From assembly GCA_965115985.1 (NCBI GenBank), contig OZ220474.1, positions 2,974,707-3,038,706 on the forward strand: 64,000 nucleotides of DNA, in the 5' to 3' direction. A program made the position numbers and the translations under genes. The notes under the pieces are model-generated. The model saw nothing but the letters and a program-made list of their open reading frames with translations. It did no database searches and was not told the DNA's origin. The stretch comes from Acidimicrobiales bacterium (GTDB taxonomy: Bacteria > Actinomycetota > Acidimicrobiia > Acidimicrobiales > Bin134). Positions 19,709-63,534 of the stretch are shown here, piece after piece; position 1 is the stretch's first letter; every line of letters begins with the position of its first letter.

Positions 19709-20407
19709 GTGGCGGAACTGCGCCGCCTGGTGAACCGACATCGTGACCGGGCGGCAACCGGAAAGTTCGTCGTGGACGGCCCCCGGCTTTTGGCCGAGGC
19801 GGTGGACGCGGGGATCGAGCTGGTCGATGTATTCGTCGAGCCGGGGGTCGATCCCGGTGTCACGGTCGACGTCCCCGTCCGGACGGTGGGCCACGGCGTT
19901 CTGGCCAGGGTGGGCTCGGTGGTCACTTCCCAGGGGGTCATGGCCACCGCCCGGATCCCCCGGTTGCCCCCTCCGAAGGACGGCGATTTCGTGGTCGAGC
20001 TGGCTGGGGTGGCCGATCCCGGTAACGCCGGCACCATCGTTCGCAGCGCGGTGGCGGCCGGTGCTCAGGCGGTGGTTTTCGGTCCCGGTTCGGTGGATCC
20101 GTGGAACCCCAAGACGGTGCGGGCCGCGGCCGGTGCCCTGTTCCGAATCCCCCTGACCGTGGCGGCTCCCGTGGGGTGCCGTGTCGGTGCCGACCCCCAT
20201 CGGGGCGATCCCTGCGATCAGGTCGATCTCACCGGCCCCCTCACCCTGGTGGTGGGCAACGAGTCCCACGGCCTCGACCCATCGGCCGCCGATCGCTGGG
20301 TGTCCATTCCCATGTCGGCCTCGGTCGAGTCCCTCAACGTGGCCTCCGCCGCCGCGGTGCTCTGCTTCGAGATCGCCCGCCAGCGCCGCCCATCCATACT
20401 CGATTGA
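19709..20407 (+). CDS. TrmH/SpoU family RNA 2'-O-methyltransferase
   Basis: SpoU motifs: DPGNAGTIVRSA, LVVGNESHGL, IPMSASVESLNVASAAAVLCFE. The upstream in-frame sequence ELLGARNPRVAELRRL suggests the true start may be a non-standard codon before 19709. Confidence 0.88.
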   Translation: MAELRRLVNRHRDRAATGKFVVDGPRLLAEAVDAGIELVDVFVEPGVDPGVTVDVPVRTVGHGVLARVGSVVTSQGVMATARIPRLPPPKDGDFVVELAGVADPGNAGTIVRSAVAAGAQAVVFGPGSVDPWNPKTVRAAAGALFRIPLTVAAPVGCRVGADPHRGDPCDQVDLTGPLTLVVGNESHGLDPSAADRWVSIPMSASVESLNVASAAAVLCFEIARQRRPSILD

Positions 20408-20410
20408 ACC

Positions 20411-20467
20411 GAGTACTGAATACTCCATTCAATGGAGTACTGAATACTCCATTCAATGGAGTCATAC
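20411..20467. repeat. 24-bp x2.3 low-GC tandem repeat, each unit carrying two short dyads
   Basis: gagtactgaatactccattcaatg occurs at 20411 and 20435, with a partial copy at 20459. The dyads are GAGTA-ctgaa-TACTC and CCATT-c-AATGG. It lies between convergent trmH and the Rieske gene. Confidence 0.9.
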
Positions 20468-22052: not shown

Positions 22053-23198
22053 ATGAGCTGGGTGGAGGGGATCGTGTTCACGGTGGGGGCGCTGATCTCC
22101 CTGGGCACGCTGCTGGCCGCGGTCCGAACGGTTGTGGTTCCCCGAGCCGAGCGGAGCCTGCTGATCCGTTTCGTCTACGTCGGCGTGGGGTTGCTGTTCT
22201 CGTTGCTGGCCCGGCACCGCAAGTCCTACGAGTCGCGGGACACGCTTCTGGCCCGCTACGCCTCGACCACGCTGATGATGCTGCCGTTCGTGTGGGCCAC
22301 CGGGATCGTCTACGGGTTCTCGCTCATGTTCTGGGCCAACGGTGTGCGCCCGTACCGGGAGTCCTTGATGTTGAGCGGGTCTTCGCTGGCCACGTTGGGT
22401 TTCCGGGAGAAGAACGACCTGGTGAGCCTGATGCTGGCCATAATCGAGGCGCTCATAGGCCTGGGCATCGTGGCGCTTTTGATCAGCTTTCTTCCCGCCA
22501 TGTACAGCGCGTTCAGTTCTCGGGAGGCCGCGGTCGCCCGACTCGAGGTCAGGGCCGGCACCCCCCCGACGCCGGAGGCCATGATCATTCTGGCTCACAA
22601 GCACGGGGCCCTGGAGTCCATGGGCGATACCTGGACCGAGTGGGAGCACTGGTTCATCCAGATCGAGGAGACCCATCAGATCTTCCCGGCGCTGTCCTTC
22701 TTCCGGTCGGTCCGCTCCGACCGATCGTGGGTCGTCGCCGCCGGTGCCGTCCTGGACACCGCGGCCATCATGTTGTCCACGGTGGCGGTACCTCACTCGC
22801 CGACGGTGCCGTTCATGATCCGGTCGGGTTATATGGCCCTGCGGCACATCGCCGACTTCCTCGGTATCGACTACGACCCCGATCCGCGGCCCACCGACCC
22901 GATCACCGTGCGCCGCCACGAGTTCCACAAAACCTACGAGACGTTGAAAAACGCCGGGGTGCCGGTGGTGGAGGATCGTGACCAGGCGTGGCGTGACTTC
23001 GCCGGTTGGCGGGTCAACTACGACGATTGTCTGGTAGGGCTGGCCTCGATCACCTCGGCCCCACCGGGCAAGTGGAGCAGCGACCGTCCGTCCCCCTACC
23101 ACCGACTGCCATTGCTCCACCGCCCCCGACACCGCCCCCGGACTCCCCTGTTGCGCCAACTCCTGCGCCGATCCGACGATTCGGCGAGGCGGCGGTGA
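22053..23198 (+). CDS. Membrane protein with possible 2-TM pore-loop (ion-channel-like) N-terminal half and cytosolic C-terminal domain
   Basis: The layout is TM - SGSSLATLGFRE - TM (LVSLMLAIIEALIGLGIVALLISFL), which resembles a K+-channel pore helix, filter and inner helix. The function is not established. The stop TGA 23196-23198 lies in the first unit of the downstream 37-bp array. Confidence 0.7.
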   Translation: MSWVEGIVFTVGALISLGTLLAAVRTVVVPRAERSLLIRFVYVGVGLLFSLLARHRKSYESRDTLLARYASTTLMMLPFVWATGIVYGFSLMFWANGVRPYRESLMLSGSSLATLGFREKNDLVSLMLAIIEALIGLGIVALLISFLPAMYSAFSSREAAVARLEVRAGTPPTPEAMIILAHKHGALESMGDTWTEWEHWFIQIEETHQIFPALSFFRSVRSDRSWVVAAGAVLDTAAIMLSTVAVPHSPTVPFMIRSGYMALRHIADFLGIDYDPDPRPTDPITVRRHEFHKTYETLKNAGVPVVEDRDQAWRDFAGWRVNYDDCLVGLASITSAPPGKWSSDRPSPYHRLPLLHRPRHRPRTPLLRQLLRRSDDSARRR

Positions 23199-23393
23199 TT
23201 TCGTGGGAGCGTGCGGTTCGGCGAGGCGGCGGTGATTTCGTGGGAGCGTGCGGTTCGGCGAGGCGGCGGTGATTTCGTGGGAGCGTGCGGTTCGGCGAGG
23301 CGGCGGTGATTTCGTGGGAGCGTGCGGTTCGGCGAGGCGGCGGTGATTTCGTGGGAGCGTGCGGTTCGGCGAGGCGGCGGTGATTTCTTCGGG
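23180..23393. repeat. 37-bp x5.6 tandem repeat starting at the stop codon of the preceding gene
   Basis: ttcggcgaggcggcggtgatttcgtgggagcgtgcgg starts at 23180, 23217, 23254, 23291, 23328 and 23365. The full copies are identical. Confidence 0.95.
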
Positions 23394-27075: not shown

Positions 27076-28347
27076 GTGAGCGACGTCGCCCCTGCCTCCA
27101 CCACCGGGGTGTTCGCGTCGCTGTCCAATCGGAGCTACGCCATGTTGTGGTGGTCGGGGTTGGTGGCGTTCCTCGCGGTGGGCATGCAGATCCTGGCCCG
27201 GGGTTGGTTGGCCATTCAGCTCACCGACAGCAACTCCAGCTTTGCCCTGGTGCTGCTGGCTTTCGGCGTGGGCATGGTCACGGTAACCCCGTTCGGGGGG
27301 GTGGCCGCCGACCGGTTTCCCCGCCGGGCGCTGATACTGGGTTCCCACGTATCGCTGACCCTCAGTGCGGTCGGGATCGGGGTCATGGTGGTGCTGGGGC
27401 AAGAGCAGTTCTGGATGCTGCTGCTGGTGTCGTTCGTCCAGGGGGCGTCGTTCGCGTTCATGGGCCCGGCCCGGGTGGCCATGACCGGAGAGGTGGTGGA
27501 GCGCGAGCTTTTGTCCAACGCGATATCGCTCACCCAGCTCACCGTGGCCAGCACCCAGACGATCGGCCCCGCCCTGGCCGGAGTGCTGGCCGACACGCCC
27601 GGCTTCGGGCTGTCGGGGGTGTATCTGCTGAGCGCGGGCCTCACCGCGGTGGGGACGATCCCGGTCATGCTGCTGCCGGTGTCGCGTCCGAAGCAGCGAG
27701 AGGCTCGCAGCCCCTTCGAGGAGATCGCCGACGGGGTGTCCTATGTCCGACGGAAGCCCTATTTGCGAGTGGTGGTTGTCTCCACCGCGCTGATGATCAT
27801 CGCCGCCCTGCCCTATCTGGCGTTCCTCCCCAAATTCACCGAGAGCGTGTTCGGAGTGGGAGCGCTATGGCTGGGCATCCTCCAGGGGGCCAACGCTCTC
27901 GGGGGCACGGTCACCGCGCTTCAGGTGGCCCGGATGCGGGACAACACCAAGCTCTGGCGACTGCGGGTCACCAGTGGGATCGCGGTGGCCGGCGGCGTGG
28001 CCGTCCTGGCCGTCACCCCCAATCATCTGGTGGCGTTGGTGGTGTTGTTCGTGCTGGGGGGCGCGGCCACCACGTTCCAAACCGCCAACATGTCGATGTC
28101 GCTGCTGCTGTCCGAGCCGGTCTACCACGGCCGGGTGCAGAGCCTGCTGATGATCGCGTTCAGCGCCCAGAGCCTGATCGCGTTTCCGCTCGGCGTTCTG
28201 GCCGATCGGATCGGGTTGCGGGAGATGCACGGATACATGGCCGCGGCCACCGTCCTGGTGGTGCTGTGGTCGGTGGTTGCCGGCCGCACGGCCCGCCGTC
28301 AGACCCGGGCGGCAGCCAGGGACCGGACGACGGGGGCCGGTGGTTAG
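27076..28347 (+). CDS. MFS transporter (EntS/MFS_3-like)
   Basis: 423 aa with about 12 predicted TM segments. N-terminus: LSNRSYAMLWWSGLVAFLAVGMQILARGWL...GGVAADRFPRR. Confidence 0.85.
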   Translation: MSDVAPASTTGVFASLSNRSYAMLWWSGLVAFLAVGMQILARGWLAIQLTDSNSSFALVLLAFGVGMVTVTPFGGVAADRFPRRALILGSHVSLTLSAVGIGVMVVLGQEQFWMLLLVSFVQGASFAFMGPARVAMTGEVVERELLSNAISLTQLTVASTQTIGPALAGVLADTPGFGLSGVYLLSAGLTAVGTIPVMLLPVSRPKQREARSPFEEIADGVSYVRRKPYLRVVVVSTALMIIAALPYLAFLPKFTESVFGVGALWLGILQGANALGGTVTALQVARMRDNTKLWRLRVTSGIAVAGGVAVLAVTPNHLVALVVLFVLGGAATTFQTANMSMSLLLSEPVYHGRVQSLLMIAFSAQSLIAFPLGVLADRIGLREMHGYMAAATVLVVLWSVVAGRTARRQTRAAARDRTTGAGG

Positions 28348-28425
28348 GCTCGGGCGTTGACCGCCGTCAGACCCGAGCAGCCAGGGATCGGACGACGGTA
28401 TCGGGCTCTTAGGCTCGGGCGTTTA
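28293..28425. repeat. 65-68 bp x2 tandem duplication spanning the stops of two convergent genes
   Basis: ccgccgtcagacccg occurs at 28293 and 28361. ttaggctcgggcgtt occurs at 28344 and 28409. Copy 1 carries the MFS TAG (28345-28347) and copy 2 carries the TAA of the minus-strand methyltransferase (28409-28411). Confidence 0.9.
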
Positions 28426-29251
28426 CCAGCCAGGCGGCGGCGCCCATGACGATGCCGTCGGGAGTCCGACGGCGCTCGACCATGGTGCCGAGGGCGGCCT
28501 TGATCCGGTCGATCACGTGAACCTCGGCGTTCTCGGGGATGGTCGTGGCCGGCAGGAGGTCGATGTAGTAGCGAACCAACTCGTCGGTGGTGCCGTCGCC
28601 CACGGTCACCGGAAGGTCGTGGGGGGTGATGTCGATGTCCACCAGCCCGGCCTCGGTGAGGGTCGAGACGATGCGGTCGGCGGAGGCCAGCGAGAACGGC
28701 CCGGGAGCATCGGGATCCATCGGCTCGGGTGGCCCCAGCACCTCGGCCACCACCCGTCCCGGCTCGGTCACCCAGGAGTTCTCGTCGGGCGACCGCCAAC
28801 ATATGAAGCTCAGCCGCCCACCGGGTTGCAGTGCCCGCCTGAGGTTGGTGAATCCCGCCACCGGCTCGGCGAAGAACATGATTCCCATTCGTGAGAAGGC
28901 GGCGTCGTGGCACCGGGGCTCGAACTCGTGGACACTGGCGTCGGCCACCACGAACGACGTGTTGGCCATCCCGGCGGCCTCGGCCCGGCGACGAGCCTCG
29001 GCCACCATGGGTGCCGACACGTCCACCCCGGTCACATGGCCGCCCCCGCCCACCAGACGGGCCAGTTCCAGGCTGGTGGTGCCGGTACCGCAGCCGATGT
29101 CCAGCAGATCCTCGCCCGCACCGGGGTGCAACCGGGCGATGGCGGTCTCCCCCAGGGGGGCGAGCATGGAATCCAGCCTGTTCCGGTGCTCCACCCACAC
29201 CCGTCCCCGATTGTTCCAGTAGTTGCGCAGCGCCTCGGCCTGGTCGGGCAT
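28409..29251 (-). CDS. Class I SAM-dependent methyltransferase
   Basis: LLDIGCGTGTTSLELARLV (motif I) and Methyltransf_11-like spacing of later motifs. Confidence 0.85.
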   Translation of the reverse strand: MPDQAEALRNYWNNRGRVWVEHRNRLDSMLAPLGETAIARLHPGAGEDLLDIGCGTGTTSLELARLVGGGGHVTGVDVSAPMVAEARRRAEAAGMANTSFVVADASVHEFEPRCHDAAFSRMGIMFFAEPVAGFTNLRRALQPGGRLSFICWRSPDENSWVTEPGRVVAEVLGPPEPMDPDAPGPFSLASADRIVSTLTEAGLVDIDITPHDLPVTVGDGTTDELVRYYIDLLPATTIPENAEVHVIDRIKAALGTMVERRRTPDGIVMGAAAWLVNARA

Positions 29252-29279: not shown

Positions 29280-29412
29280 GGTGGGTACGTGTACCGATGC
29301 TCCAACACCGGGGCCGGTGGGTACATGTACTGGGTACTCCAGGACCGGGACAAGTGGGTGCGTGTACCGATACCCTGTAGCGGGATTGGTGGGTGCGTGT
29401 ACCGATACTCCT
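29280..29412. repeat. Four direct repeats (period 35-37 bp) with GTAC-rich palindromic cores in a divergent promoter region
   Basis: The copies are ggtgggtacgtgtaccgat (29280), ggtgggtacatgtactggg (29316; GTACATGTAC is a perfect palindrome), agtgggtgcgtgtaccgat (29353) and ggtgggtgcgtgtaccgat (29388). Confidence 0.9.
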
Positions 29413-30334: not shown

Positions 30335-30818
30335 TCCCGTCCCCCTTTCCATGACCGTCAACGGTCGAACCCGGCGAGGGTCGGCCGAGCCCCGGTTGAC
30401 ACTGGCCGACTTCCTGCGGGAACAGGCCCTGTGTACCGGGGTCCACCTGGGCTGCGAGCACGGGGTGTGCGGCTCTTGTACCGTGCTGGTGGACGGCCGG
30501 GCGGTGCGCTCCTGTCTGCTGTTCGCGGTGCAGGCCGACGGGGCCGACGTCACCACCGTGGAAGGGCTCGCTCCCGACGAGGAGACGCTCCATCCGGTGC
30601 AGGAGGCGTTTCGTGACTGCCACGGCCTCCAGTGCGGGTTCTGCACCCCGGGTTTCGTGATGTCGGTGACCGCCTTCCTCCGGGCCAATCCCGACCCCTC
30701 CGACGAGGAGATCCGCCACGGCATCGCCGGCAACCTCTGCCGCTGCACCGGTTACCAGGGCATCGTGGCCGCCACCCGCCAGGCGGCCGCGACCATGAGG
30801 GGAGACAGCCATGAGTAG
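30327..30818 (+). CDS. Molybdenum hydroxylase [2Fe-2S] (small, CoxS-like) subunit
   Basis: The GTG at 30327 follows a CAGGAGG Shine-Dalgarno and overlaps the upstream stop. Cluster motifs are CEHGVCGSCTV and GLQCGFCTPG...CRCTGY. Confidence 0.92.
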   Translation: MADPVPLSMTVNGRTRRGSAEPRLTLADFLREQALCTGVHLGCEHGVCGSCTVLVDGRAVRSCLLFAVQADGADVTTVEGLAPDEETLHPVQEAFRDCHGLQCGFCTPGFVMSVTAFLRANPDPSDEEIRHGIAGNLCRCTGYQGIVAATRQAAATMRGDSHE

Positions 30819-30911
30819 GGGAGACAGCCATGAGGCCAGGCGGCCGCGACCATGAGGGGAGACAGCCATGAGGCCAGGCGGCCGCGACCATGAGGGGAGA
30901 CAGCCATGAGT
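30779..30911 (+). repeat. Complex 19/38/57-bp tandem repeat of the small-subunit stop / large-subunit start junction (ATGAGTAG)
   Basis: ccaggcggccgcgaccatgaggggagacagccatgag occurs at 30779, 30836 and 30874. gggagacagccATGAGTAG occurs at the first copy (stop used at 30816-30818) and at the last copy (ATG used at 30906). Confidence 0.92.
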
Positions 30912-36026: not shown

Positions 36027-36463
36027 GCCAGACCCCCCCATCCAACCGAACCGACGGCCAGGAAGCACCCGACTCCCGTCTGATCGTCGTCGTGCCCCAT
36101 GAGCCCGGGCAGCTCGCCCACGTCGCCGGCCTGTTGGCCGAGGAGAACATCGACGTCGAGGCCATGGACGGGCACCTCGTCGGAGAGCTCGGTGTCCTCA
36201 TGCTCAGCACCAGCGACGACGACACCGCACTCCATGTCCTGCTCAAGGCCAACCTTCGGGCCGTGACCTCCGACGCTCTCGTCTTCCACATGCTCGACCG
36301 TCCCGGTGCCCTGGCCGGCGTTGTGCAGTTGTTCGAGCAGAACGGCCTCAACGTCCGTACCATCCATATCATCCACCGCCATGCCGGCTCTGCCGTGGTC
36401 GCCGTCTCCACCGACAACGACGACCTCGCGCTCACCCTGCTCGACCGCGATTCCCTCCTCTAG
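36023..36463 (+). CDS. Tandem ACT-domain protein, translationally coupled to hdc
   Basis: The ATG at 36023 overlaps the hdc TGA (ATGA). Two ACT-like units are present (LIVVVPHEPGQLAHVAGLLAEENIDVEAM and LVFHMLDRPGALAGVVQLFEQNGLNVRTI). Confidence 0.75.
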   Translation: MSQTPPSNRTDGQEAPDSRLIVVVPHEPGQLAHVAGLLAEENIDVEAMDGHLVGELGVLMLSTSDDDTALHVLLKANLRAVTSDALVFHMLDRPGALAGVVQLFEQNGLNVRTIHIIHRHAGSAVVAVSTDNDDLALTLLDRDSLL

Positions 36464-36590
36464 TGGTTCCTGCCGGTAGCCGCAGCCAAAGCTGCTCGAC
36501 CGCGATTCCCTCCTCTAGTGGTTCCTGCCGGTAGCCGCAGCCAAAGCTGCTCGACCGCGGCTCTCTGCTCTGTCTGTTCCTCCCAGCAAC
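36437..36590. repeat. 55-bp x2 (+ degenerate third) tandem repeat copying the ACT-gene stop region
   Basis: ctgctcgaccgcgattccctcctctagtggttcctgccggtagccgcagccaaag occurs at 36437 and 36492, with a diverged copy from 36547. The first copy contains the TAG at 36461-36463. Confidence 0.92.
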
Positions 36591-40942: not shown

Positions 40943-41737
40943 GTGGAGATTCGGCGATTGGGCGGAGCGCTGGGTGCGGAGGTGGTGGGGCTCGATACGG
41001 CTCGGGAAGTGGACGGCGATGGGTTCGATGCGGTACGCGACGCTCTCCATCAGAATGGTGTGATCTGCATCCGGGATCAGGGGGCGATGACCCCCGAGGA
41101 ACAGCTTGCCTTTGCCGCCCGATGGGGGCCGATCTCCATCCACCCCTACGTGCCGTCGATCGAGGGGCATCCCGGGATCATGAGGATCTACGACCCGAAC
41201 CCCATCACCCAGACCTGGCATTCCGATTCGACCCACATGCGCGAACCTCACGCCTACACCCTGTTGCTGGCCCGGACTCTGCCCGAGGTGGGGGGCGATA
41301 CGATGTTCGCCAGCGCCACCAAGGCGTTCGAGTCGCTTTCGTCCGGGCTCCGGTCGATGTTGCGCTCCCTCTCGGCCGTTCACGAGGGCACCGATCGAGC
41401 CGCTGATGCCGGGTTGGACCACGATTCGGTGGTGGCGATCCATCCGGTGGTGATAACCCACCCGAGTACCGGGGCCGAGGCGCTGTTCGTCAACGACAAC
41501 TACGTGACCCGCATTGATGGGTGGACCCCCGAGGAAAGTCGCCCGCTTCTGGAGTACCTCTATTCGGTGGTGGGGCGTTACGAGAACACCTACCGGCATC
41601 GCTGGCGCGAGGGCGATCTGGTTGTCTGGGACAACCGATCCACCCAGCACGCCGTGGTCGGTGACGTCGGTGGAGCCGAGCGGGTGCTTCATCGGGTCAC
41701 GATTGCCGGGAGTGCTCCTGTTCGATCCGCTGCCTGA
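40943..41737 (+). CDS. TauD/TfdA-family Fe(II)/2-oxoglutarate dioxygenase
   Basis: The WHSDSTH (HxD) iron motif, ARTLPEVGGDTMFAS, and a C-terminal WDNRSTQHAVV...R.LHRVTI. Confidence 0.9.
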   Translation: MEIRRLGGALGAEVVGLDTAREVDGDGFDAVRDALHQNGVICIRDQGAMTPEEQLAFAARWGPISIHPYVPSIEGHPGIMRIYDPNPITQTWHSDSTHMREPHAYTLLLARTLPEVGGDTMFASATKAFESLSSGLRSMLRSLSAVHEGTDRAADAGLDHDSVVAIHPVVITHPSTGAEALFVNDNYVTRIDGWTPEESRPLLEYLYSVVGRYENTYRHRWREGDLVVWDNRSTQHAVVGDVGGAERVLHRVTIAGSAPVRSAA

Positions 41738-41813
41738 TCGGTCCGATCGGTTCATCGGGTCACGATTGCCGGGAGCGCTCCTGTTCGATCAGCAGCCTGA
41801 TCGGCCCGATCAG
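41688..41813. repeat. 63-bp x2 tandem duplication spanning the stops of convergent TauD and acyl-CoA dehydrogenase genes
   Basis: ttcatcgggtcacgattgccgggag occurs at 41688 and 41751. The TauD TGA (41735-41737) is in copy 1 and the ACAD stop (41810-41812, minus strand) is at the end of copy 2. Confidence 0.92.
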
Positions 41814-43975: not shown

Positions 43976-45367
43976 AAAAAGGCGTTGGCCGGTGGCTTTG
44001 CTGCTCTGGCCGTTCTGGCCCTGGTGGCATCGGGTTGCGGTAACGATGACGATGCCGCCGACGGCCAAGTATCGGATGATCGGCCGACGGTGATGGCCAC
44101 CACCTCAATCTGGGCCGATGTGGTGACCAACGTGGCTTGTGACGGGCTGGCCGACGTGGTGACGCTGATTCCCCCGGGCGGGGATCCTCACGCCTTTCAA
44201 CCTTCCTTGCAGGACCGGGGCCGCATGGACGATGCCGTCATGATCGTGGCCAACGGTCTTGACTTGGAGGAGGGTGTGATCGACACCATCGAAGCGGTTG
44301 AGGAGGCCGGCACGCCGGTATTTCACGTAGCCGATCACGTCGAGACCATCGGATTCGCCCCCGGTATGGAGTTGGACCACGACGACGAGGACGATCACGG
44401 CGACGATCACGGCGACGAGGACGATCATGGCGACGAGGACGACCATGGCGAGGAAGATGGTGACCACGGCGAGGAAGAGGCTGACGATCATGGCGACGAG
44501 GACGATCATGGCGACGAAGATGGTGACCACGGCGAGGAAGAGGCTGACGATCATGGCGACGAGGACGATCACGGCGAGGAAGAGGCTGACCACGGCGAGG
44601 AAGAGGCTGACGATCATGGCGACGAGGACGATCACGGCGAGGAAGAGGCTGACGATCATGGCGACGAGGACGATCACGGCGAGGAAGAGGCTGACGATCA
44701 TGGCGACGAGGACGATCACGGCGAGGAAGAGGCTGACGATCATGGCGACGAGGACGATCACGGCGAGGAAGAGGCTGACGATCATGGCGACGAGGACGAT
44801 CACGGCGACGAGGACGACGGCCATGGGCACGACCATGGGGCGGAGGACCCCCATATTTGGTTCGATCCGGTGAAGGTGGCGGGCGCGCTGCCTGCGCTCG
44901 GCGAGGCTCTGGGGTCGGCTGCTGGTCTGGATGCTGATGCACTGGATGCTTGCGTGGCGGCATACCGGGAGGAACTGATGGCCCTCGACGCGGAGGTCGA
45001 GAGAATCCTGGAACCGATTGCCCAGGAGGATCGCCTGATGGTCACCAACCACGATGCCCTGGGATATTTCGCCGACCGCTACGGATTCCGGCTGATCGGG
45101 ACGGTTATCCCCGGCGGCTCATCCATGGGCACGGCCAACCCGGCCAACCTTCAGGAGCTGGTGGAACTGATCGACCAGACCGGAGTGCGGGCCATATTCG
45201 CCGAGTCCACGCACAGTTCCCAGGACGCGGAGGCTCTGGGCCGGGAGGCCGGTGTGCAGGTTGTGGTGCTGGATACCGGGTCGCTGGGTCCCGCGGGCAG
45301 CGATTCGGGCACCTACATAGGCTTCATGCGGGCCAACGCCCATAGGATCGCCATCGGCCTCGGCTGA
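43955..45367 (+). CDS. znuA: Metal (Zn/Mn)-binding lipoprotein of an ABC importer, ZnuA/TroA family, with giant His/Asp/Glu-rich loop
   Basis: Lipoprotein signal MRMITNIKKALAGGFAALAVLALVASGC. Cluster-9 SBP blocks: VMATTSIWADVV, GGDPHAFQPS, DPHIWFDP, VTNHDALGYFADRYGF. Between them lies an acidic/His segment of about 150 residues. Alternative starts are 43961 and 43895. Confidence 0.88.
   Translation: MRMITNIKKALAGGFAALAVLALVASGCGNDDDAADGQVSDDRPTVMATTSIWADVVTNVACDGLADVVTLIPPGGDPHAFQPSLQDRGRMDDAVMIVANGLDLEEGVIDTIEAVEEAGTPVFHVADHVETIGFAPGMELDHDDEDDHGDDHGDEDDHGDEDDHGEEDGDHGEEEADDHGDEDDHGDEDGDHGEEEADDHGDEDDHGEEEADHGEEEADDHGDEDDHGEEEADDHGDEDDHGEEEADDHGDEDDHGEEEADDHGDEDDHGEEEADDHGDEDDHGDEDDGHGHDHGAEDPHIWFDPVKVAGALPALGEALGSAAGLDADALDACVAAYREELMALDAEVERILEPIAQEDRLMVTNHDALGYFADRYGFRLIGTVIPGGSSMGTANPANLQELVELIDQTGVRAIFAESTHSSQDAEALGREAGVQVVVLDTGSLGPAGSDSGTYIGFMRANAHRIAIGLG
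44383..44835 (+). repeat. In-frame repeat region encoding the (DHGDEDDHGEEEAD)n loop; five perfect 42-bp units
   Basis: gaggaagaggctgacgatcatggcgacgaggacgatcacggc occurs at 44597, 44639, 44681, 44723 and 44765. More divergent copies lie upstream from about 44383. Confidence 0.93.
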
Positions 45368-45402: not shown

Positions 45403-46266
45403 ATGGAGTTCTTGACCAACCCGGTCGAGTGGTGGGTCGAGCCCTTCATCGACAACATCTTCATGCGCAATGCCCTGTGGTCGGGACTGCTGGCCGTTTT
45501 GACCACCTCGACGGTCGGAACCTGGGTGGTGCTCCGAGGGATGAGCTTCTTGGGCGAAGCTCTGGCTCACGGGGTGCTGCCCGGCCTGGCCATCGCTTTC
45601 ATCATCGGGGGTGATACCACCATTGGTGCGTTGGTGGCCGCCCTGGCCATGGTGGGCGGCATCAATATCGTTCGTAGTCACTCGCCGCTGCCCGACGACA
45701 GCACCATCGGGTTGCTCTATGTGGGATTCCTGGCCACGGCGGTGGTGATCATGTCCACCAGTTCGGGGGCGTACTCCGGTGAGCTCACCCGGTTCCTGTT
45801 CGGTTCGATCACCGGGGTGACGGACAGTGATCTTGTCCGCCAGCTCGTCATTGCCGGGATCGTGATGGTCGGGGTGGTGGTGCTGCACCGGGCGTTTCTG
45901 GTCTTGACCTTCGACATGGTCCAGGCTCGCCTCTTCGGATTCCGCCCCCAGTTGACCCACGCCGCTCTGCTGGCGCTTCTGGCCATCTCGATCGTGGCGT
46001 CGTTCCAAGCCGTCGGAAATCTGCTGGTGTTCGCGTTCTTGGTGGCCCCTCCGTCGGCCGCGGCCATGCTGGTGCGCCGGATCCCGGCAATCATGGTCGT
46101 CGCAGTTGGTCTCGGTGTGGTCTCGGTGGTGGTCGGTCTGCTCATCAGCTACCACCACGACACCGCGGCCGGTGCCACCATGGCGCTGGGGGCGGTGGTG
46201 CTGTTCCTGGTCGCTATTTTGATCCGGGCCTGCTTGGGGTCCTACAACGTCAGGTTGGCCACCTAG
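45403..46266 (+). CDS. znuB: ABC-3 family metal importer permease
   Basis: 287 aa with 8-9 TM segments: FMRNALWSGLLAVLTTSTVGTWVVLRGMSFLGEALAHGVLPG. Confidence 0.9.
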   Translation: MEFLTNPVEWWVEPFIDNIFMRNALWSGLLAVLTTSTVGTWVVLRGMSFLGEALAHGVLPGLAIAFIIGGDTTIGALVAALAMVGGINIVRSHSPLPDDSTIGLLYVGFLATAVVIMSTSSGAYSGELTRFLFGSITGVTDSDLVRQLVIAGIVMVGVVVLHRAFLVLTFDMVQARLFGFRPQLTHAALLALLAISIVASFQAVGNLLVFAFLVAPPSAAAMLVRRIPAIMVVAVGLGVVSVVVGLLISYHHDTAAGATMALGAVVLFLVAILIRACLGSYNVRLAT

Positions 46267-46370
46267 CTCGGGGGTTCGTCACCTGATCAGGGGGATTGGC
46301 CACCTAGTTCGGGGGTTCGTCACCTGATCAGGGGGATTGGCCACCTAGTTCGGGGGTTCGTCACCTGGTT
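46257..46370. repeat. 41-bp x2.7 tandem repeat beginning with the znuB stop codon
   Basis: ggccacctag occurs at 46257 (TAG 46264-46266), 46298 and 46339. Confidence 0.9.
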
Positions 46371-46902: not shown

Positions 46903-47357
46903 GTCGATCTCCGAGGATAGATGAAGGAGTTGGACACCACTCCGGCCACGTCGCCGTCGGGGGCCACCACCTCCAGCCGGAAGGCCACTATGTCGAAGGT
47001 GCCGGTCCGGGTGCCCTGCTTGCGCACCGCGCTGGTGATTTGCCCCCGCACGGTGTAGGTGGTGCCGACCTCCAGGGGGCGGAGTTGGCGGAGGTCGGAT
47101 TCTCCGAACATGGGGCCGTCGTCGGCCGACGCCCGGCACAGGGTGAACAGCTCGTCGATGCTCAGGCCCATGCCGGCCATGGCCGCGTAGTAGCAGAACA
47201 TGGGGTGGGCGATACCGTCGGTGTGCTGGGGCGCACCCACCACGTCGTTGGTCAGCCATACCCGCCAGGGCTCGACGGTGTAGGTACCGCCCGGGAACTG
47301 CCACCCCACCAGGGCCTCCAGTTCCTCGACGGTCGGAATTGCGGGTAGATCGCTCAT
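46899..47357 (-). CDS. Hotdog-fold protein, MaoC N-terminal-like partner subunit (HadA-like arrangement)
   Basis: 152 aa, overlapping the downstream MaoC gene by ATGA. It has the FAS1-DH-N/UPF0336-like pattern (WQFPGGTYTVEPWRVWL...HPMF). Confidence 0.7.
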   Translation of the reverse strand: MSDLPAIPTVEELEALVGWQFPGGTYTVEPWRVWLTNDVVGAPQHTDGIAHPMFCYYAAMAGMGLSIDELFTLCRASADDGPMFGESDLRQLRPLEVGTTYTVRGQITSAVRKQGTRTGTFDIVAFRLEVVAPDGDVAGVVSNSFIYPRRST

Positions 47358-47423
47358 CGGTTCACCACCGGCAGGCCTCGGGGTGGATCGCTCATCGGTT
47401 CACCACCGGCAGGCCTCGGGGAT
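47348..47423. repeat. 38-bp x2 tandem duplication of the LLM-stop / hotdog-start junction
   Basis: gatcgctcatcggttcaccaccggcaggcctcgggg occurs at 47348 and 47386. The start used is in copy 1 (CAT 47355-47357) and the stop used is in copy 2 (TCA 47400-47402). Confidence 0.93.
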
Positions 47424-49426: not shown

Positions 49427-49640
49427 CATCGTAATCGTGGGGGCCGGTTCGGGGGTTGGGGCATGAACGGGGCGACGGCCTCCCAGCCGGTCGATACCGT
49501 CGTCGTGGGGGCCGGTTCGGGGGTTGGGGCATGAACGGGGCGACGGCCTCCCAGCCGGTCGATACCGTCGTCGTGGGGGCCGGTTCGGGGGTTGGGGCAT
49601 GAACGGGGCGACGGCCTCCCAGCCGGTCGATACCGTCGTC
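49427..49640 (+). repeat. 68-bp x3.1 tandem repeat of the GMC oxidoreductase 5' end (start codon plus first 22 codons)
   Basis: atgaacggggcgacggcctcccagccggtcgataccgtcgtcgtgggggccggttcgggggttggggc has its ATG at 49463, 49531 and 49599. Confidence 0.95.
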
Positions 49641-51140
49641 GTGGGGGCCGGTTCGGCGGGGTCGGTGCTGGCTGCCCGGTTGTCCGAGGATCCCGCTCGC
49701 CGGGTGGTGCTGCTCGAAGCCGGTCCCGATCATGGTGACCGCCCGCCCCCGGAACTGGCCGACGTCACCGAGTCGTCCCACCCTGATCATGATTGGGGCG
49801 ATGAGGTGCGTCTGCCCGGGGGTCGAACCCAGCACTATCCCCGGGGACGGGTGGTGGGCGGCAGTTCGGCGGTCAACGGCGGCATCGCCGTCCGGGCCAT
49901 GCCCGCCGATTTCGATGCCTGGGGATTTCCCGAATGGCGGTGGGAGGCGATTCTGGATGGCTTCCGGCGACTGGAATCCGATCCTGACGGCGAGGATCGC
50001 TGGCACGGTCGAAACGGCCCGTTGCCCATTGTCCGCACGCCCGAGGCCGATCTCCACCCGGTTCATGTCGCCTTCTACGAGGCGTGCCGGTGGGCCGGTC
50101 ACGGCTTTGTCGCCGATCACAACGCCCCGGATTCCACCGGTGTGGGTCCGCTGCCCCGCAATCGCCGGGGTCGGCAACGGGTATCGGCGGCGGACGCCTA
50201 CCTGACTCCCGAGGTCCGGGGCCGCCCCAACCTGGAGGTTCGAGGCGGTTGCCCGGTTTCGTCGGTGCGGTGGAGCGGCCGCCGGGCCGTGGGGGTAAAC
50301 GTGGCCGGCAGCCACGGGCTGGAGGCCGTCGTCGCCGGGGAGGTGATAGTGGCGGCCGGGGTGGTGCAGTCCCCGCTGCTGTTGTGGCGTTCCGGTATCG
50401 GCCCGGCCTCGGAGCTGGCCGGTTTGGGGCTGGACGTCGTGGTGGACCGCCCCGGGGTGGGGGCGAACCTCTCCGATCACCCCGCGATCTATCAGTTCGC
50501 CGTACCCAAGCCCCGGATGGTGTCCCCGAGCGACGTCACCATCCAGACCCTATTGCGGTTCACCAGCTCGACCGGCCCTACCAACGATCTCCAACTGTTC
50601 CCCGTAGGGGTGATCGACCTGTCGGCCAACCCCCGGCGGCGGGCCGAGGCCGGCGGAGTGGACACCGTCTTCGCGTTGGTGGCGGCCCTGCAACGGGTGG
50701 AGAGCCGGGGGTCGGTGCGACCGGTATCGGCCGATCCCGGGTATCCGCCCGCCATCACCTATCCGTTCATGGCTCACAAGCCCGACCGGGATCGACTGGT
50801 CGAGGCTCTGGAGCTGGGGCTGGAGCTGCTGGGCTCGCCCCCGTATCAAAACGTGGCCGACGGTCCCTTGTTCCTGCCCGACAAGCTCGACCGTGACGAA
50901 CTGTCCGCCCATGTGTTCGCCAATCATGTGGCCTTCTATCACGGAGCGGGCACGTGTGCGATGGGCTCGCCCGACGATTCCGGCGCGGTGGTCGGCCCCC
51001 ACGGGCAGGTGTGGGGCACCGAGGGGCTGCGGGTGTGCGATGCCTCCATCATCCCCGAAACCCCGAGAGCCAACACCAACCTGAACGTCATCGCCATCGC
51101 CGAGCACATGTCCGACCTGCTCCGAAAGGGTGGGCCATAG
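49599..51140 (+). CDS. GMC-family FAD oxidoreductase (choline dehydrogenase-like)
   Basis: MNGATASQPVDTVVVGAGSAGSVLAARLSEDP..VLLEAG (Rossmann GxGxxG). GMC signature regions GG.S.VNG and a C-terminal HGAGTCAMG. Confidence 0.9.
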   Translation: MNGATASQPVDTVVVGAGSAGSVLAARLSEDPARRVVLLEAGPDHGDRPPPELADVTESSHPDHDWGDEVRLPGGRTQHYPRGRVVGGSSAVNGGIAVRAMPADFDAWGFPEWRWEAILDGFRRLESDPDGEDRWHGRNGPLPIVRTPEADLHPVHVAFYEACRWAGHGFVADHNAPDSTGVGPLPRNRRGRQRVSAADAYLTPEVRGRPNLEVRGGCPVSSVRWSGRRAVGVNVAGSHGLEAVVAGEVIVAAGVVQSPLLLWRSGIGPASELAGLGLDVVVDRPGVGANLSDHPAIYQFAVPKPRMVSPSDVTIQTLLRFTSSTGPTNDLQLFPVGVIDLSANPRRRAEAGGVDTVFALVAALQRVESRGSVRPVSADPGYPPAITYPFMAHKPDRDRLVEALELGLELLGSPPYQNVADGPLFLPDKLDRDELSAHVFANHVAFYHGAGTCAMGSPDDSGAVVGPHGQVWGTEGLRVCDASIIPETPRANTNLNVIAIAEHMSDLLRKGGP

Positions 51141-62370: not shown

Positions 62371-63534
62371 CTAGTGGGAGTGGGAGAAGAACTGGAGGAT
62401 CTTGGACTTGTGACGGATTTCCTTCTCGGTGGCCAGGAGATGATCCACATGGTGGTTCTCGTTGCCGCAGTCGTCCACCGAGTGCTCGAGCTGAATGGTG
62501 GAGTGCTGGATTCCGTACCGACTGGCGATCGAGCGAATCCGTTTTAGCTGCGAGTCGGTTCCGCCCTCGTACTCGTAGTCCGGGTCGGCCAGAACGTGGG
62601 CGGTCATCGACAGATACCCGGAGGTGATGGTTCGGACATGTACGTCGTGGACGATGGTTACGCCCTCCACGTCTTCGATTTCGGCGCAGAGCTTGAACAC
62701 GTCCACGTGCTCGGGAGTTCCGTCGATCAGCACGTGGAACACCTCGGTCACCAGATTCCAGGAACTCATGAGGATCAGCAAGCCAATGACCATACTGAGG
62801 ATCGGGTCAACGACGTCCCAGCCCAGGCTGAGCACCACGACCCCGGAAACCACCACGGCCACCGACCCCAGCAGGTCGGCCAATACATGCTGGAAGGCAC
62901 CCTCCACGTTCAGACTGTGCTGGGACTGCCGATGGAGAATCCAGGCCACCAGGACATTGATCAACAGACCGGCGGCACCGACGATGAGCATGAGCGCGCC
63001 CTCGACTTCGGCCTCGTCGCCGATTCGGTGGAAGGCCTCGTAGAAGATCCAGGCCACGATCACCCACAGGGACAAAACGTTGAACAACGCGGCCAGTATC
63101 TCGGTTCGATAGAAGCCGAAGGTCCGGTGGGTCGAGGGCGGCCGGTCGGCGGCCCACATGGCGAACAGCGCCAGCCCGATGGCCGCGCTGTCGGTGAGCA
63201 TGTGCCCGGCATCGGCGATAAGCGCCAAGCTGCCCGAGGCAATACCGCCGATCACCTCGATCACCATGAAGGTGGTGGTCAAGGTAACCGCCAGAATCAG
63301 ACTGCGGCGGCTGGCCTCCCGCAGGTCGTGATGGTGGTGCCCGTGATCGTGGTCATGGTGGTGGTCGTGCCCATGATCGTGGTCATGACTGTGGTCGTGA
63401 CCATGGTGGTGATCGTGCTCATGACTGTGGTCATGCCCGTGATTGTGACCATGGCCACCACCATGATCTTCCTCGTGACCATGGTGGTGATCGTGCCCAT
63501 GCTCATGGTCGTGACCACGATCAGATTTTGCCAC
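62371..63534 (-). CDS. Cation diffusion facilitator (CzcD/ZitB-type) exporter with 65-residue His-rich N-terminus
   Basis: CDF TM core (GSLALIADAGHMLTDSAAIG, HVLADLLGS) and a C-terminal cytosolic domain. The N-terminus reads GHDHEHGHDHHHGH...HDHDHGHHHH. The GTG start shares one base with the upstream TAG (TAGTG). Confidence 0.92.
   Translation of the reverse strand: MAKSDRGHDHEHGHDHHHGHEEDHGGGHGHNHGHDHSHEHDHHHGHDHSHDHDHGHDHHHDHDHGHHHHDLREASRRSLILAVTLTTTFMVIEVIGGIASGSLALIADAGHMLTDSAAIGLALFAMWAADRPPSTHRTFGFYRTEILAALFNVLSLWVIVAWIFYEAFHRIGDEAEVEGALMLIVGAAGLLINVLVAWILHRQSQHSLNVEGAFQHVLADLLGSVAVVVSGVVVLSLGWDVVDPILSMVIGLLILMSSWNLVTEVFHVLIDGTPEHVDVFKLCAEIEDVEGVTIVHDVHVRTITSGYLSMTAHVLADPDYEYEGGTDSQLKRIRSIASRYGIQHSTIQLEHSVDDCGNENHHVDHLLATEKEIRHKSKILQFFSHSH

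Follow-up and report, generated by a model that had tools for sequence, protein, structure and literature searches.

Four-base overlaps between convergent genes (CTAA, TTAA, CTAG, and TTAG) constitute the modal class of prokaryotic gene overlap (Lillo & Krakauer 2007, PMC2174442). The papers on overlapping genes consulted here treat both the origin of overlaps and their disruption. In a study of how overlaps decay in Salmonella the word duplication never appears, and our literature search returned no specific earlier account of overlaps resolved by duplication, nor of tandem repeats in Poriferisocius. Short tandem duplications have been described in other settings. MTDs are microhomology-mediated duplications of tens of bases, with examples of 55, 68, and 92 bp (Dan et al. 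2021, PMC8639346); they are reported to be favored by G+C-rich microhomology, are reversible through the same slippage, and in that work were for the most part transient and subclonal, and damaging where they fell inside genes. MIRU-VNTRs, as far as the summary in PMC3184786 presents them, form a family dispersed over ~40-50 loci that was spread, perhaps, by transposition (Supply et al. 1997).

The locus described here lies in a 64-kb stretch of an Acidimicrobiales genome (hereafter the window), where a plus-strand MFS transporter gene faces a minus-strand gene for a class I SAM-dependent methyltransferase across a short tandem repeat (Table 1). Its inferred ancestral junction, like that of 11 living relatives, matches the four-base overlap class (TTAG or CTAG), whereas the window itself has two relic tetramers 65 nt apart, with one gene using each. 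The repeat resembles MTDs in being a short local segment duplicated head-to-tail, and several young arrays elsewhere in the window finish, as MTDs do, in partial copies of 3-14 nt; it differs from MTDs in being fixed and old enough for its copies to have diverged, with a border identity of only 2 nt. It also recalls MIRU-VNTRs, which the summary in PMC3184786 describes as tandem units of 40-100 bp lying between mycobacterial genes, with ends that overlap flanking termination or initiation codons. Unlike MIRUs, however, each array in the window has its own locus-derived unit.

The head-to-tail duplication consists of one copy of 68 nt and one of 65 nt that abut directly, with zero spacer between them. 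The copies are ~85% identical with a single 3-nt gap: once this gap is allowed, 55 of 65 positions agree, and seven of the ten mismatches cluster in a 10-nt block directly 5' of TTAG. Small indels account for this block in a gapped alignment, after which three mismatches remain. TRF called the repeat at 28293-28427 (period 65, 2.0 copies, score 177) and a second repeat search agreed; the top score among arrays of period at least 13 in 30 dinucleotide-preserving shuffles of the window was 80. The 15-mer TTAGGCTCGGGCGTT has two exact occurrences in the window, and allowing two mismatches revealed no third match in these 64 kb (~0.07 expected by chance). Directly after copy 2 stands CC, which also forms the first bases of the unit; in these diverged copies the identity at the unit borders is limited to these 2 nt, or to CCGCC versus CCAGCC if one indel is admitted. 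The end of copy 1, GCCGGTGGTTAG, looks ancestral because it resembles the sequences of relatives L014 and L031. An inverted repeat at the unit ends (GTCAGACCCGAGC ... GCTCGGGCGTTGAC, partly complementary) was considered as a driver and rejected: its arms are absent from the relatives, and a 7-nt complement at unit ends, being expected by chance in G+C-rich DNA, was given no weight.

The duplicated unit takes in ~52 nt from the end of the MFS gene, then TTAG, then ~13 nt from the end of the methyltransferase gene. The MFS product is matched at 100% identity by a public protein (P0001), the source genome's own, which starts at the methionine of MLWWSG. The final ~18 MFS codons (ARRQTRAAARDRTTGAGG and the stop) fall within the unit; this tail lies outside the Pfam match (residues 11-397) and is weakly conserved across relatives. 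The methyltransferase tail, ...W(L/M)VSARA-stop, is kept in 34 of 34 relatives and occurs in the window as the variant VNARA-stop. Each copy retains a recognizable version of both tails. The methyltransferase relic on the minus strand of copy 1 is ...TAVNARA-stop (...WLVNARA-stop in the working gene), and the MFS relic on the plus strand of copy 2 is RRQTRAARDRTTVSGS-stop (RRQTRAAARDRTTGAGG-stop in the working gene). In both copies TAG closes the reading frame of an MFS-type tail, and TTA that of a methyltransferase tail ending in VNARA. Because each copy holds both stops in the right frames, the stops already overlapped before the duplication. The window junction is thus a former member of the four-base convergent stop-overlap class: the overlap is absent today, and the stops in use lie 61 nt apart.

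These results uphold an earlier note on this DNA, which had reported the motif TTAGGCTCGGGCGTT twice, at 28344 and 28409, within a 65-68 base duplication (TRF and the exact search agree). It had also assigned the copy 1 TAG at 28345-28347 to the end of the plus-strand MFS gene and the complement of the copy 2 TTA at 28409-28411 to the end of the minus-strand methyltransferase gene, and both assignments hold by ORF (27076-28347 and 28409-29251) and by Pfam match (MFS_3/MFS_1 and Methyltransf_25). The methyltransferase-like tail that it saw persisting on the minus strand of copy 1 is the ...TAVNARA-stop given above. Its view that the genes once lay tail-to-tail with stops overlapping in TTAG, and that duplication gave each a private copy of the shared end, is likewise supported: both stops are in frame in each copy, the single-copy overlap occurs in 11 of 33 relatives, and the MFS gene stops in copy 1 and the methyltransferase gene in copy 2.

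Table 1. Features of the window and states of the orthologous MFS/methyltransferase junction in relatives
Feature	Position or genomes	Strand	Details
MFS transporter gene	27076-28347	+	ORF; Pfam MFS_3 (4.9e-34), MFS_1 (1.9e-32); stop TAG at 28345-28347, in copy 1
Class I SAM-dependent methyltransferase gene	28409-29251	-	ORF; Methyltransf_25 (1.6e-21); stop is complement of TTA at 28409-28411, in copy 2
Copy 1	28293-28360		Working MFS tail and stop, then relic methyltransferase tail (minus strand VNARA-stop)
Copy 2	28361-28425		Relic MFS tail (plus strand RRQTRAARDRTTVSGS-stop), then working methyltransferase tail and stop
TTAG tetramer, copy 1	28344-28347		TAG is the MFS stop in use; TTA is an unused methyltransferase stop relic
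TTAG tetramer, copy 2	28409-28412		TTA is the methyltransferase stop in use (TAA, minus strand); TAG is an unused MFS stop relic
Intergenic spacer	28348-28408		61 nt (65 - 4); wholly former coding sequence of both gene tails
CoxS-like small-subunit gene, stop	30816-30818		
CoxL-like large-subunit gene, ATG	30906		
Array, CoxS-like/CoxL-like junction	30817-30910		38 nt x 2.5, perfect; co-directional; 8-nt overlap ATGAGTAG to 87-nt spacer
Array, convergent junction	41688-41811		63 nt x 2; spans both 3' ends; 9-nt spacer to 72-nt spacer
Array, co-directional junction	47343-47421	-	38 nt x 2.1; 4-nt spacer to 42-nt spacer
Relatives, spacer -4	L002, L009, L016, L018, L022, L023, L025, L031, L034		Stops share CTAG/TTAG; single-copy overlap
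Metagenome contigs, spacer -4	L048, L049		
Relative, spacer -17	L019		Longer overlap
Relatives, spacer +9	L014, L021, L026, L032		Extra copy of 13-nt unit including TAG
Relatives, spacer +22	L024, L029, L033		About three 13-nt units
Relatives, spacer +32 to +38	L003, L006, L007, L010-L013		Diverged 42-nt duplication; L013 with an additional perfect 13-nt one
Relatives, spacer 95-104	L005, L017		Unrelated spacer and different MFS tail
Relatives, spacer 780-1108	L004, L008, L020, L028, L030		Inserted DNA

A scan with the methyltransferase, taking one genome per species, yielded 34 close relatives (76-87% identical), which are MAGs of Candidatus Poriferisocius or other Acidimicrobiia belonging to the sponge-associated Sva0996 group. 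The convergent MFS/methyltransferase pair is kept in 31 of these 34 genomes and on two metagenome contigs, giving 33 junctions for comparison. The earlier note had proposed such a comparison, and it shows that the single-copy TTAG/CTAG overlap exists and is widespread: 11 of the 33 syntenic relatives (nine genomes and both contigs) have the junction in one copy, with stops that overlap by four bases, and the conserved methyltransferase tail comes next. The tetramer is CTAG in most of them and TTAG in L016 and L031. In a multiple alignment, the window's 65 nt and the extra DNA of relatives with 9-, 22-, and 38-nt spacers fall at one point, the border between the MFS tail and (C/T)TAG, and the insertions of 13, ~26, 42, and 65 nt repeat adjoining sequence that includes the stop tetramer. 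On a rough two-protein NJ tree the -4 state occupies the deepest branch and several clades, and the window forms a long lone branch with its unique 61-nt spacer; the number of independent events among the relatives that can be read from this two-gene tree is approximate.

Relatives with an unrelated spacer (L005 and L017) or with inserted genes show either clear insertions or an MFS tail of another kind, and they say nothing about the lineage of the window itself. On the junction, the closest genome (L001/L061, MFS 91% identical) gives no information because ~6.5 kb, with an IS30-like transposase first, now separate its two genes. The inserts themselves are varied. That of the closest genome holds the transposase (HTH_38 and rve domains, L061:4283-5227) and then a 1120-aa gene; two small minus-strand ORFs lie at the junction in L004 (4877-5870, with a weak PIN-domain match) and also in L008 and L030; and a gene for an NYN-domain protein is inserted in L020 (5003-5632) and likewise in L028.

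Exact-protein look-ups of the MFS transporter and the methyltransferase returned no conspecific genomes, and a metagenome scan for conspecifics produced only two further relatives, at 82% methyltransferase identity. Divergence at four-fold sites between the window and the closest genome is 0.25-0.29, and the two copies differ by 5-15%. From these values the duplication is probably specific to the window's lineage and not recent.

Together, these observations argue for a local tandem duplication across the junction, arising through slippage or microhomology and surviving since neither gene was broken, a reading to which we assign a probability of roughly 85%. The unit is of local origin, being single in the 11 relatives and having no other copy in the window. 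In the proposed sequence of events, the ancestor would have had the two genes tail-to-tail with stops sharing TTAG, and a segment of ~65 nt (the MFS end, TTAG, and the methyltransferase end) would have been duplicated head-to-tail, most likely by replication slippage or a microhomology-mediated template switch. A ribosome on the MFS message would then find its unchanged sequence and stop codon in copy 1, and one on the methyltransferase message would do the same in copy 2. A duplication that spans the junction is tolerated because an intact path remains for a reader arriving from each side, in contrast to one within a gene, which is tolerated only when in frame. With neither protein altered, the event at this junction would have been effectively neutral. 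Its outcome would be a 61-nt spacer of dead tail copies that has drifted since, the relic MFS tail of copy 2 apparently gaining the scrambled 10-nt block and copy 1 one Ala codon. The relic MFS tail in copy 2 is the most drifted part of the repeat, as expected for dead sequence. We infer the molecular mechanism and the neutrality of the event, and slippage or microhomology is not demonstrable for this array because the border identity after divergence is CC only.

Could selection for separation have fixed the duplication, by relieving collisions in transcription or translation or by making room for a terminator? The same junction, which looks like a permissive landing site, has been split repeatedly in relatives by duplications of varied length and by insertions, and arrays lie at about 5 of the 8-9 convergent junctions in the window (counted from the gene and array lists). 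The plus-strand spacer RNA also folds slightly better than shuffled sequences (z = -2.2, 5 of 200 shuffles), with two predicted hairpins, one of which (28348-28378) spans the joint between the copies. However, a scan of 27900-28900 found zero terminator-like or promoter-like sites on either strand: hairpins are present without a U-tract and so are not intrinsic terminators. The minus-strand spacer folds no better than shuffles (z = -0.9), and a search of 28150-28600 gave no Rfam match at E <= 1. Moreover, the overlap is retained in 11 relatives, spacer sequence varies between lineages, and arrays are as common at divergent junctions and are present at co-directional ones too. No benefit is needed, because a mutational process acting at permissive sites explains arrays at all junction types, and we regard the selective explanation as quite unlikely. 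Given the weakly favorable plus-strand fold, the spacer could conceivably have gained some minor function since.

It is highly improbable that a dispersed intergenic element of the MIRU, REP, or MITE kind inserted here and resembles the gene tails by coincidence. Mycobacterial MIRUs, in the summary of PMC3184786, are indeed of similar size (40-100 bp), intergenic, and overlap flanking codons, yet the unit at this junction shares homology with gene tails that relatives have in a single copy, it has no other copy in the 64 kb, the units of the window's arrays share no sequence with one another as those of a MIRU, REP, or MITE family would, and the repeat search reported no terminal inverted repeats. 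Chance similarity or an assembly artifact is scarcely credible. Although G+C-rich DNA is rich in short chance repeats (the window holds several families of 10-18 nt) and repeats are sometimes mishandled in MAG assemblies, the TRF score is 177 where the best of 30 shuffles reached 80, the expectation for the exact 15-mer is 0.07, the copies differ by substitutions and indels in a way unlike a product of read collapse or expansion, and the same type of event appears independently in several other assemblies. Local tandem duplication remains our preferred reading, and the event was an ordinary, probably neutral one.

A single junction duplication is not a special event in this genome or clade, where there are many. 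The window contains 30 tandem arrays of period at least 13 (0.47 per kb), as compared to about 0.9 per shuffled window. Twenty of the 30 are intergenic or extend over the end of a gene, although non-genic bases make up only ~12% of the window by codon-usage gene calls, and all ten intragenic arrays have a period divisible by three and so stay in frame. Fourteen are 93-100% identical. Periods of 35-38 nt are found in 11 arrays, and a second group lies at 61-68 nt. Comparison of 26 array units revealed no mutual sequence similarity, which indicates duplication at each locus instead of membership in a repeat family. Their location and the in-frame pattern are as expected from a frequent duplication process filtered by selection; frequent slippage or microhomology-mediated duplication with such a filter would account for the location bias, the in-frame rule, and the recurrence at permissive junctions. 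The window is much richer in high-identity arrays of at least 30 nt than are the orthologous loci of the relatives.

Other junctions in the window, one with an overlap and two with short spacers, appear to have been widened in the same manner (Table 1). The orthologous CoxS-like/CoxL-like junction has kept small overlaps in many relatives (ATGA, 1-nt overlaps, and ATGAGTAA in L030), and two relatives carry duplications of their own at this site: L001 (2349-2483; 68 nt x 2, 100% identical), in which a TAATG stop/start overlap has thereby been separated, and L008 (870-1024; 70 nt x 2.2). In the window, the region 30798-30910 combines the perfect 38-nt x 2.5 array with a 19-nt x 1.9 repeat and includes an RBS-like AGGGGAGA and an ATG; reconstruction of the single-copy state gives the 8-nt overlap ATGAGTAG, as in L030, and the repeat places additional ATG codons, in phase, ahead of the real CoxL-like start.

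The window holds several other arrays. Those at 36437-36559 (55 nt x 2.2, perfect) and 46255-46367 (41 nt x 2.8) each hold the stop of a plus-strand gene at a convergent junction, and the unit of a 24-nt x 2.8 array at 20396-20462 is a small palindrome, TACTCCATTCAATGGAGTA. An array of 37 nt x 5.6 at 23180-23387 begins inside the 3' end of gene 22053-23198, and one of 68 nt x 3.3 at 49435-49656 lies over the 5' end of gene 49599-51140. At 100% identity, each of the two is either very recent or actively homogenized. Upstream of the methyltransferase gene, the divergent promoter region carries a 35-nt x 3.6 array (29281-29411, 76% identical), and the same upstream region is independently arrayed in L016 (3870-3964) and L001 (3850-3992), with 36 nt x 2.6 and 23-nt units. 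Long in-frame coding repeats occur at 44402-44818 (42/63 nt) and 63328-63523 (18/48 nt), with units of the GACGATCATGGCGACGAG type in which codons for Asp, His, Gly, and Glu seem abundant. This composition suggests that the two regions encode repetitive acidic, His-rich proteins, possibly with a role in metal binding.

One tentative interpretation of the array excess is that short tandem duplications arise in this lineage at a raised rate and with a length bias. Under selection, such a process would systematically turn overlaps and tight junctions into spacers and would be a main source of new intergenic DNA in these genomes; we hold this to be possible but rather unlikely. Such a raised rate might be traceable to a peculiarity of replication or repair, for example in flap processing. 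Flap-endonuclease defects (yeast rad27/FEN1, or the 5'-nuclease of E. coli polA) leave a signature of numerous short duplications with short direct repeats on their flanks, which the duplications across the window resemble; this likeness is a tentative lead on the array excess. If the rate is indeed raised, the array at 28293 may be an older, decayed example.

The single event changed no protein and bears no sign of new function, and it provides a worked example of how an overlap can be lost harmlessly: tandem duplication yields an end of its own for each gene and a spacer made from former coding sequence. Because the study of overlap decay is silent on duplication, recurrent cases, verified independently at two junctions within a single clade, make a useful illustration. 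In annotation, odd ORF ends and short repeats between genes are also explained by relic stops and tails of this kind. More notable than the single event are the high density of junction duplications in the window and their preferred length of 35-38 nt, and the arrays are good candidate strain-typing (VNTR) markers for these uncultured sponge symbionts.
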